In this document: positions 39,458 to 41,128 of the stretch, one piece after another | Layout: the number at the start of each line of letters is the position of its first letter | Numbering within the stretch: position 1 is the first letter of the stretch | NCBI GenBank assembly: GCA_964016885.1 | Contig: OZ024743.1 | Location: 27,032,001 to 27,096,000 of the forward strand | Direction: 5' to 3' | DNA: 64,000 nucleotides | Origin: Eledone cirrhosa | Taxonomy: Eukaryota | Translations under genes and position numbers: made by a program | Notes under the pieces: generated by a model | The model's database searches: none | The model's input: the letters and a program-made list of their open reading frames with translations, nothing else | Told to the model about the DNA's origin: nothing

Positions 39458-39511
<54 letters not shown>

Positions 39512-39733
39512 AATTAAGTTAAAAATGTACATCTACATATGCATACTGAAATACTAGTATGCATATGAATACACACACGTATACATATGTAGATGTAACA
39601 AGTCTTTCACTGGTTACTTTACTGTGAGTAACCCAGCTATTCTGTATGTAAACACAGAGACAAACCGGTTTTTAGAGTCATACTGGTTTTCGAGGAAACA
39701 CCTTTCCTCTATTCTCCAGAAAGCCAGACAAGG

Positions 39734-39778
39734 AATATTGAACTAGTTTCGTTGTTGTTACAACTCATCAGCAATATT
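39734..39778 (-). ncRNA. Minimal type-I hammerhead ribozyme (mirror copy)
   Basis: Exact reverse complement of 40084-40128. Confidence 0.8.
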
Positions 39779-40083
39779 TACCTATCTACCGGCCTTTCTG
39801 GAGAATCGTAAAAGCACATATCGTTATATGCTTTTTCTATGAAAATTAGTAGTGGGCAGACTAATTTGCATAGAGTGTGAGTACGCACCGGTTCAGCGGA
39901 GACGATAAAAACAAATAACGAAACGAAATTTAATTTCGTTTCGTTATTTGTTTTTATCGTCTCCGTTGAACCGGTACGTACTCACGCTCTATGCAAATTA
40001 GTCTGCCCACTACTAATTTTCATAGAAAAAGCATATAACGATATGTGCTTTTACGATTCTCCAGAAAGGCCGGTAGATAGGTA

Positions 40084-40128
40084 AATATTGCTGATGAGTT
40101 GTAACAACAACGAAACTAGTTCAATATT
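40084..40128 (+). ncRNA. Minimal type-I hammerhead ribozyme
   Basis: aatattg-CTGATGA-gttgt(aaca)acaac-GAA-ACTAGT-T-caatatt: 7-bp stem I, 5-bp stem II, palindromic stem III, GUU site. Confidence 0.82.
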
Positions 40129-40417
40129 CCTTGTCTGGCTTTCTGGAGAATAGAGGAAAGGTGTTTCCTCGAAAACCAGTATGACTCTAAAAACCGGTTT
40201 GTCTGTGTGTTTACATACAGAATAGCTGGGTTACTCACAGTAAAGTAACCAGTGAAAGACTTGTTACATCTACATATGTATACGTGTGTGTATTCATATG
40301 CATACTAGTATTTCAGTATGCATATGTAGATGTACATTTTTAACTTAATTGTTTAAGCGTCAGTCATACAAAAGTGAGTTACAAACGAAACGAAATTTAA
40401 TTTCGTTTCGTTATTTG

Positions 40418-40487
<70 letters not shown>

Positions 40488-40508
40488 ATAAAAACACCAT
40501 GTTATTTA

Positions 40509-40570
40509 TTCATTCTGATGACTGAAGACAGATATAAATATCTGCCTTCAAGAAACCACTGGTAAATGAA
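40509..40570 (+). ncRNA. Type-I hammerhead ribozyme in a ~120-bp TA-flanked insert (40486-40608)
   Basis: ttcatt-CTGATGA-c tgaag a cagatat(aa)atatctg c cttca a-GAA-ACCA c TGGT-A-aatgaa; closing pair of stem II mismatched. Confidence 0.72.
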
Positions 40571-40603
40571 ATAATTATCTTATGTTGTTTATTACATAAC
40601 TAA

Positions 40604-40641
<38 letters not shown>

Positions 40642-40697
40642 TAATTATAATGAAATGACAGGAGGCTGGATTTGTGTAAATCCTTGAAAGGTTTATT

Positions 40698-40755
40698 ATA
40701 CTATGATCATTTCAATGACCGGGTTCCGTATGAATCCGGTGATATCATCAGGTAT
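40698..40755 (-). ncRNA. Type-I hammerhead ribozyme
   Basis: Minus strand atac-CTGATGA-tatc accggattc(atacg)gaacccggt catt-GAA-ATGATCAT-A-gtat; palindromic stem III, AUA site. Confidence 0.72.
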
Positions 40756-41128
40756 TCGAAATATAATACGTGAATGTAATAGGTAAAATCCATGGGGCTG
40801 AAAATCGAGACCCGAGGGCGACCGCTATTCTGTTCCTTCAACCTCAGCCGGTCGCCCTGGAGTGACGTGGCTAAATTTTATAGTATGCTACTACCGGTCA
40901 GATGAACGAAAACAGAAAGAGATGGGAGCATAGGTTAACGTCGATCCCATGACACAAGGTAAAAGAAAGAAAGAAAGGAAGGAGAAGAAGGGGGAAGAAA
41001 GAAGAAGAAGAGAAGTCAGGGTTAATGTCAGCTAAAAGAGGAAGGTAACTACTACTGGTCAGATATAGGCAAGCAAGAGGGGGAAGGAATATAAGTCTGC
41101 AGGGAGGAGAGGAGAGAAGGAAGGGAAG

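Follow-up and report, generated by a model that had tools for sequence, protein, structure and literature searches.

The stretch of Eledone cirrhosa DNA analysed here, which at its full length of 64,000 nucleotides we call the window, contains a palindrome inserted between two (TA)n target microsatellites, one on its left (39460..39508, no strand assigned) and one on its right (40422..40484). The arms of the palindrome (39507-39930 and 39932-40355) are 424 nt each, meet at a single central nucleotide, T39931, and differ at four positions (39657, 39876, 39886 and 39896). Recomputation thus returned the arm length, the 1-nt centre, the four mismatches and the (TA)n on both flanks that a preliminary description of this DNA had given. 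It also confirmed that a 41-bp direct repeat, with copies at 39917-39957 and 40384-40424, recurs at a spacing of 467. This repeat carries a 29-nt hairpin with a 13-bp stem, found once at the inversion junction (39917..39945, centred on T39931) and once more at 40384-40412.

The repeated unit is 467 nt long with a GC content of 0.355, and we number it u1-u467 after window positions 39958-40424. The left arm, or A-arm (39507..39930), has the unit on the minus strand and consists of u441-467 followed by u1-398; the right arm, or B-arm (39932..40424), lies on the plus strand and consists of u442-467 followed by the full unit at 39958-40424. The 69-nt difference between the two is a "tail" (40356..40424, plus strand), which is present at one end only and includes the second hairpin copy. 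The outer end of the A-arm, at 39507, and that of the B-arm coincide with two sites, A and B, that are fixed throughout the family described below and that we regard as the putative first and second starts of reverse transcription. Near the beginning of the unit the A-arm has the haplotype C9-G19-A29, and the B-arm has T9-A19-G29 at its 5' end. The unit is also contained in contigs of four runs, including X4, X5 and X6 (two other organisms and a second sample), and in contigs of two runs it is joined 467 back on itself; since none of them spans the whole stretch, these contigs neither support nor question the window junction.

The hammerhead motif and its surroundings

Each arm holds one type-I hammerhead motif, on the minus strand in the A-arm (39734..39778, with a predicted cut between 39741 and 39740) and on the plus strand in the B-arm (40084..40128, predicted to be cut after GUU, between 40121 and 40122). 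Rfam Hammerhead_HH9 has a single match in each arm, at 38.6 bits (E 1.4e-7), which falls short of its gathering score of 52, and a strict type-I descriptor found just these two motifs in the 64-kb window, compared with zero or one in each of 10 shuffles, which bears out the one motif per arm previously claimed. The label "minimal", in contrast, was wrong. Helix I has 7 bp (AAUAUUG/CAAUAUU) and is accompanied by CUGAUGA, helix II has 5 bp (GUUGU/ACAAC) and is accompanied by GAAA, and helix III has 1-2 bp with a palindromic ACUAGU, whereas the minimal hammerheads of Penelope-like elements (PLEs) are defined by a helix I of 4-5 bp, a helix II of 7-8 bp and no helix III (Cervera & de la Pena 2014, PMC4209133). 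Its predicted helices therefore place the motif in the canonical metazoan type-I class, which is reported to act as a dimer (PMC4209133, PMC7229834). Between copies the cut triplet alternates between GUU and GUC, and one pair of helix II, which is U142-A153 in 53 insertions, reads A-U in the other 33, none of the 86 being discordant; this compensatory change is a single evolutionary event and as such modest evidence. Covariation over the whole unit is weak (double changes in 4 of 145 pairs, covariation term -2.75). No frame free of stops exceeds 67 aa in the element or 57/62 aa in the tandem unit, in agreement with the non-coding nature ascribed to it. Rfam matches to miRNA and sRNA families proved to be generic hairpins, far under gathering.

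That transcripts of either strand of the window copy could cleave themselves is a weak claim. Against it stand the predicted structure of a read-through transcript, in which the hammerhead would be locked inside the arm duplex, the single hammerhead that each strand carries in sense orientation, and the reported dimer dependence of its class. Since the ribozyme would be buried in duplex and each strand has only one hammerhead, the window copy is probably no source of circles and is likely to be a dead-end insertion. Two or more consecutive hammerhead units, which Li, Clavereau & Pollet (2026, 10.64898/2026.07.22.740005) take as the mark of an active copy, are found at many other loci of the family and not at the window locus, with its single hammerhead per strand.

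Upstream of the ribozyme, at 39991..39998 on the plus strand, lies ATGCAAAT, which we take to be an "octamer"; a TATA-like CATATAA follows it at a distance of about 40 nt. The intact form of the octamer is the commonest among 77 tallied variants; it is found in 28 of 30 copies of a sister family and in a third family as well, including a copy (L135) that has it upstream of the ribozyme. The spacing of octamer and TATA-like sequence 5' of the ribozyme (window 39991-40040) is common to three families that are otherwise about 60% alike, and the segment is a possible internal promoter.

Two further sequences resembling a hammerhead lie to the right of the element. The first (40503-40580, plus strand), between two (TA)n runs, reads CTGATGA...GAAAC with a 6-bp helix I and an unpaired base in helix II, and failed the strict descriptor; its 3' part recurs next to another locus (L092). 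The second (40690-40770, minus strand) reads CTGATGA...GAAA and is also present in L131; its helix II closes non-canonically, and it may not be a ribozyme.

Copies of the unit and their two ends

The palindrome is not isolated. Within this genome of about 3 Gb the 33-nt ribozyme core has 5,114 exact copies, a count that leaves out the A142 variant (the control gave 0), and B ends that run into (TA)n number 2,269 genome-wide, so that there are at least 2,269 insertions. The family is young, and its copies take the form of truncated monomers, tandem arrays and head-to-head pairs of arrays, the largest with some 20 units. The family includes copies with a tail at just one end, inverted 5'-truncated copies and partial tandems. 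Two fixed sites, roughly 70 nt from each other, mark the ends of copies, B at u465-467 and A at u393-398, with end sequences TTTTTA and TTAATT(GTTT). The region from A through the tail to B belongs to the least variable sequence of the unit, with 3 variable columns out of 80 compared with 30 out of 192 in mid-unit (24 copies).

The two ends are paired. Our sample consisted of 93 of the first 100 listed B ends on one contig (C1), in genome order, six having been unfetched and one lying inside another region. At 57 of these 93 loci the far end was an inverted arm that stops at A (u388-399) and runs into TA, the end being u393, 395 or 398 in 50 of the 57; at 10 it was a short A-like stub, a few of these being weak calls. 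The remaining 26 comprised truncations into TA (6), non-TA ends (6), complex loci (10) and ends beyond the region (4), and an A end was found further out in five of them, a B end in none. Conversely, 20 A ends picked for having no listed B partner yielded 10 A/B pairs, two A/A pairs and eight other arrangements, and two B/B pairs (L045 and L112) came from other samples. Because A/A and B/B pairs occur, A/B pairing is a strong bias rather than a rule. The window copy obeys the family layout, its left arm leading to an A end and its right arm to a B end.

Target duplications of 12-13 bp are clear at four loci (L036, L088, L113 and L116). A duplication score picked out 11 of 23 informative loci compared with 2.7 in shuffles, a noisy measure given that the shuffle maximum was 8; at the window the target is pure (TA)n, in which a duplication is unresolvable. 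Retrozyme copies also lie in (TA)n at the 3' ends of autonomous PLE families (flanks of L046, L052, L108 and L117), so it appears that (TA)n microsatellites collect nested insertions. At one locus, L263, two subfamilies stand tail to tail and are joined at the hairpin, which suggests insertion or recombination there.

A sister retrozyme has a unit of about 424 nt, roughly 62% identical to the 467-nt unit and colinear with it, its own hammerhead, the same (TA)n target and a matching arrangement of two ends, here with a tail of about 49 nt. It has 3,884 candidates, the best copies being 91-94% identical (examples are L139:1392-1955 on the minus strand, L097:1193-1737 and L226-L255). A third, more distant hammerhead repeat also occupies (TA)n (L135:679-986, minus strand; L140:1808-2112, plus strand), and further hammerhead-like families are seen at L127, L131, L137 and L138.

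Origin of the inverted arms

The reading that we favour with reasonable confidence is that the palindrome is a head-to-head insertion of the 467-nt hammerhead family, for which a PLE enzyme primed twice, on both strands of a cut (TA)n, and copied one template. Tandem arrays would be transcribed, and their hammerheads would cut and perhaps circularise the RNA, as the retrozyme literature leads one to expect. A Neptune-type PLE protein with RT and GIY-YIG domains, a putative helper acting in trans, would bind the conserved A-tail-B region and cut (TA)n with a stagger of about 12 bp, in keeping with the duplications. One 3' end of the target would then start at A and the other at B, as the pairing of ends indicates, possibly with a dimer placing one active site at each start. 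Each cDNA would run an independent distance, often several units, with a tendency to stop at the hairpin (u427-455), and the two cDNA ends would be joined by microhomology or a few added bases. Where both had stopped within the hairpin, its self-complementarity would join them as an exact mirror, as in the window. The earlier proposal of a retrozyme-like non-coding unit that was reverse-transcribed into (TA)n and copied past one unit is supported.

Its further proposal, that a cDNA snapped back and primed its own copying, fared less well. According to it, a cDNA folds back at the hairpin or at a stretch of microhomology and serves as its own template, the product being resolved at the other fixed site, so that an extra step is needed for a precise stop at A or B. 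The hairpin is indeed involved in the window junction, and hairpin-centred junctions are enriched, but they account for only about 5 of the 57 unbiased copies (one more is centred on another short palindrome). The exact hairpin-centred junction was matched at 19 loci genome-wide, of which 12, on several contigs, are A/B pairs, 7 of these with a B-arm of about 41 nt; two others (L114 and L125) have a 34-36-nt arm that ends at neither site and lacks a TA flank, and these look like brief true snap-backs. Snap-back would also account for the haplotypes shared by arms; in L031 unit-private variants are common to both arms around a near-mirror junction, and the lengths of 46 of the 57 copies are compatible with copying one arm.

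A fold-back copy, however, has to fall short of its template arm by a fixed length, and 11 of the 57 copies are impossible as a fold-back of either arm, by 47-228 nt, which is the rate of independent arms (14.4 expected under independence, 9-20). Arm lengths are uncorrelated (rho 0.04, p 0.76, 57 copies), 51 of the 57 junctions are asymmetric, and near-mirror junctions show no excess (7 versus 5.4 expected). Moreover, the two arms of the window copy carry two haplotypes known from other insertions. The length test therefore argues against self-priming as the main route; for the window locus itself snap-back is admissible by length because the junction there is an exact mirror. Snap-back is thus disfavoured as the general route, and we consider it unlikely as the explanation of the palindrome.

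The two arms meet with an overlap of 1-8 nt in 27 copies, 1-19 added nucleotides in 19, a blunt join in 4 and an overlap of at least 25 nt in 7. The junction falls within u415-455 of the A-arm in 13 of the 57 copies (p 9e-5) and of the B-arm in 12 (p 0.02), and the hairpin at u427-455 is best read as a stall and joining hotspot for both arms, not as a primer.

One may also consider that the arms came from separate RNAs or separate insertions and were later homogenised by gene conversion. Among the 64 of 91 A/B insertions with enough overlap for comparison, offset arms and old subfamilies included, the median arm divergence is 0.53% within an insertion versus 4.2% between insertions, which is difficult to reconcile with separate origins. 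The same holds for variants that are private within the sample and fixed in all units of both arms, present in 7 of 33 multi-unit insertions. An arm's own partner is its best or tied match in just 30 of the 64, which speaks for this explanation, although it ranks in the top 5% in 50. So does the fact that the arms of the window copy and of L002 differ at haplotype sites. Three of the four window mismatches correspond to haplotypes of other insertions (T9-A19-G29 in 11 and C9-G19-A29 in 25), so that simple copying of the right arm does not account for the left. Within the right arm, which is a mosaic, the switch lies between u29 and about u105, away from the ribozyme cut, and later gene conversion is therefore possible at this locus. 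Haplotype switches at the ribozyme cut are unsupported in the window and merely compatible with the data in L002. Similarity of arms could thus stem partly from later conversion, while separate RNAs or insertions as the source of the arms seem improbable to us.

The shared haplotypes fit two cDNAs made from one RNA, perhaps a circle. On the template the two arms lie in mixed register. Among the 21 unit pieces of L056 and the 20 of L099 no difference was seen at the scored sites, which, together with the fixed private variants of 7 of the 33 multi-unit insertions, is no more than suggestive of rolling-circle templating. Such uniformity is not proof of a circle, since assembly polishing or homogeneous source arrays would look alike. 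In L043, variants with a period of 2 are confined to one arm, a sign that this array grew at the DNA level after insertion.

Such array duplication at L043, the tandem arrays and a hairpin close to end B might also recall a DNA-level rolling circle of the Helitron/Helentron kind, or a recombining satellite, with the hammerhead as a passenger. Helitrons and Helentrons have a CTRR 3' end and a 3' hairpin about 12 nt from the end and make no target duplication. Here the ends lack CTRR, and the target is duplicated over about 12 bp; 5' truncation is variable with two fixed 3' ends, the hammerhead core is kept with compensatory changes, and the same A/B architecture is seen in elements with RT and GIY-YIG domains, all of which makes this explanation very improbable. 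Long near-perfect palindromes are a known class of assembly or library fold-back artefact, yet an artefact is scarcely credible for a copy whose arms differ at family haplotype sites and which stops at the two sites fixed in the family; in addition, 12 of the 19 loci with the exact hairpin junction show the A/B layout on several contigs. A MITE or foldback DNA transposon, which has identical inverted termini and a constant interior, was rejected because the ends here differ (A versus B) and junction and length vary in every copy.

Relation to retrozymes and Penelope-like elements

By its sequence features the 467-nt family is best read as a non-LTR retrozyme, that is, a non-autonomous PLE, as has been proposed for animal retrozymes generally (Cervera & de la Pena 2020, PMC7229834; Li 2026, 10.64898/2026.07.22.740005). 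Like those described in animals, it has a low-GC (35.5% here), non-coding tandem unit with one type-I hammerhead each (PMC7229834; Li 2026) and thousands of copies ranging from monomers to multimers; the short palindromic helix III resembles that of amphibian repeats, and the duplications of 12-13 bp compare with more than 4 bp reported. The unit is slightly above the 150-450 bp given in PMC7229834 and within the 51-972 bp of Li 2026. The available text of the retrozyme papers describes neither head-to-head copies nor two fixed ends, and "inverted" occurs 0 times in that of PMC7229834. Li 2026 ties retrozymes to PLEs by co-occurrence and pLTR homology; for the 467-nt family the link is the anatomy of insertions (tail, inversion, duplication of about 12 bp and (TA)n target), with no homologous pLTR among 50 GIY-YIG loci.

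PLE insertions, as described in PMC3846280 and PMC8557442, likewise include partial tandem repeats and inverted copies truncated at the 5' end; they carry the tail at just one end, favour microsatellites and have palindromes at some inverted junctions. Unlike them, the 467-nt family has no ORF, its tail is 69-74 nt compared with 30-40, and both arms can have several units. Arkhipova 2013 (PMC3846280) took the junction palindromes of Penelope as self-priming, whereas the present data favour two target-primed starts. Purified Poseidon PLE protein from Anolis nicks and extends both target strands and cleaves AT-rich targets; its RT initiates on the RNA at two internal positions, one on each side of the tail, and it is predicted to form a dimer (Frangieh 2024, PMC11167929). 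The chemistry needed for twin priming therefore exists, at least in an autonomous element of another clade. In the text of PMC11167929 covered here, no difference in start site between the strands is reported and the two starts are not tied to inverted insertions, whereas in the 467-nt family nearly every copy indicates a different start site for each strand.

In the main texts of a mainly open-access literature, searches on Penelope twin priming, PLE structures and head-to-head self-priming returned no twin-priming proposal for PLEs and no published account of the 467-nt family. For L1, Ostertag and Kazazian reportedly described twin priming in 2001, in which both target strands are primed on one RNA and a 5' inversion results via microhomology. 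The present case differs in that the second start is fixed rather than a chance internal match, and in that both cDNAs copy overlapping sequence. The retrozyme kind and the insertion architecture of PLEs are known, and what the 467-nt family contributes is chiefly statistics bearing on mechanism.

Plausible enough to propose, if somewhat short of even confidence, is the wider idea that Penelope-type integration is itself a paired reaction, in which a dimeric RT/endonuclease keeps a single RNA bound at its two fixed starts and hands A and B to opposite target strands. Were this true, a single event would produce both features of PLEs, the inverted pLTR and the tail on one side, and on a circular retrozyme RNA the two enzymes would travel round the same molecule in opposite senses, each laying down identical units, up to about 20 of them. 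The origin of the tandem and inverted structures of PLEs has been named an open question (Craig 2021, PMC8557442), as has the mobilisation of animal retrozymes (Li 2026, 10.64898/2026.07.22.740005). The family offers thousands of reaction products that would record a likely PLE insertion, it separates two mechanisms of inversion, with twin target priming favoured over self-priming, and its unit, being compact, would suit the in vitro PLE assay that already exists.

Autonomous PLEs with RT and GIY-YIG domains and the same (TA)n target are present in the genome. GIY-YIG candidates number 10,596, of which 150 were scored; two of five ORFs tested matched both RVT_1 and GIY-YIG, and several families carry before GIY-YIG the Cys motif assigned to Neptune and Nematis (Craig 2021, PMC8557442). 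One PLE family stops in (TA)n at either of two sites some 66 nt from each other, and in its head-to-head copies A is paired with B in all three that have both ends visible. Searches of 50 GIY-YIG loci with the unit and with a two-family profile found no autonomous PLE that shares the unit sequence, the matches being separate retrozyme insertions and low-complexity sequence only. One 61% match beside a PLE ORF (L139) turned out to be a sister retrozyme in (TA)n and not a pLTR. Since the sister family has the same layout at 62% identity, the lineage of mini-units must be old and its parent may be unrecognisable.

Several other features of the PLEs were observed. A near full-length Neptune-like element (L126:190-6900, minus strand) has pLTRs at both ends and a frameshifted ORF with open frames of 402 and 938 aa. 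The tails of three PLE families have in common a CTCGTGT motif that is absent from the retrozyme, and one PLE family has a minimal hammerhead in its 3' region (L129, L130, L133, L138 and L141).
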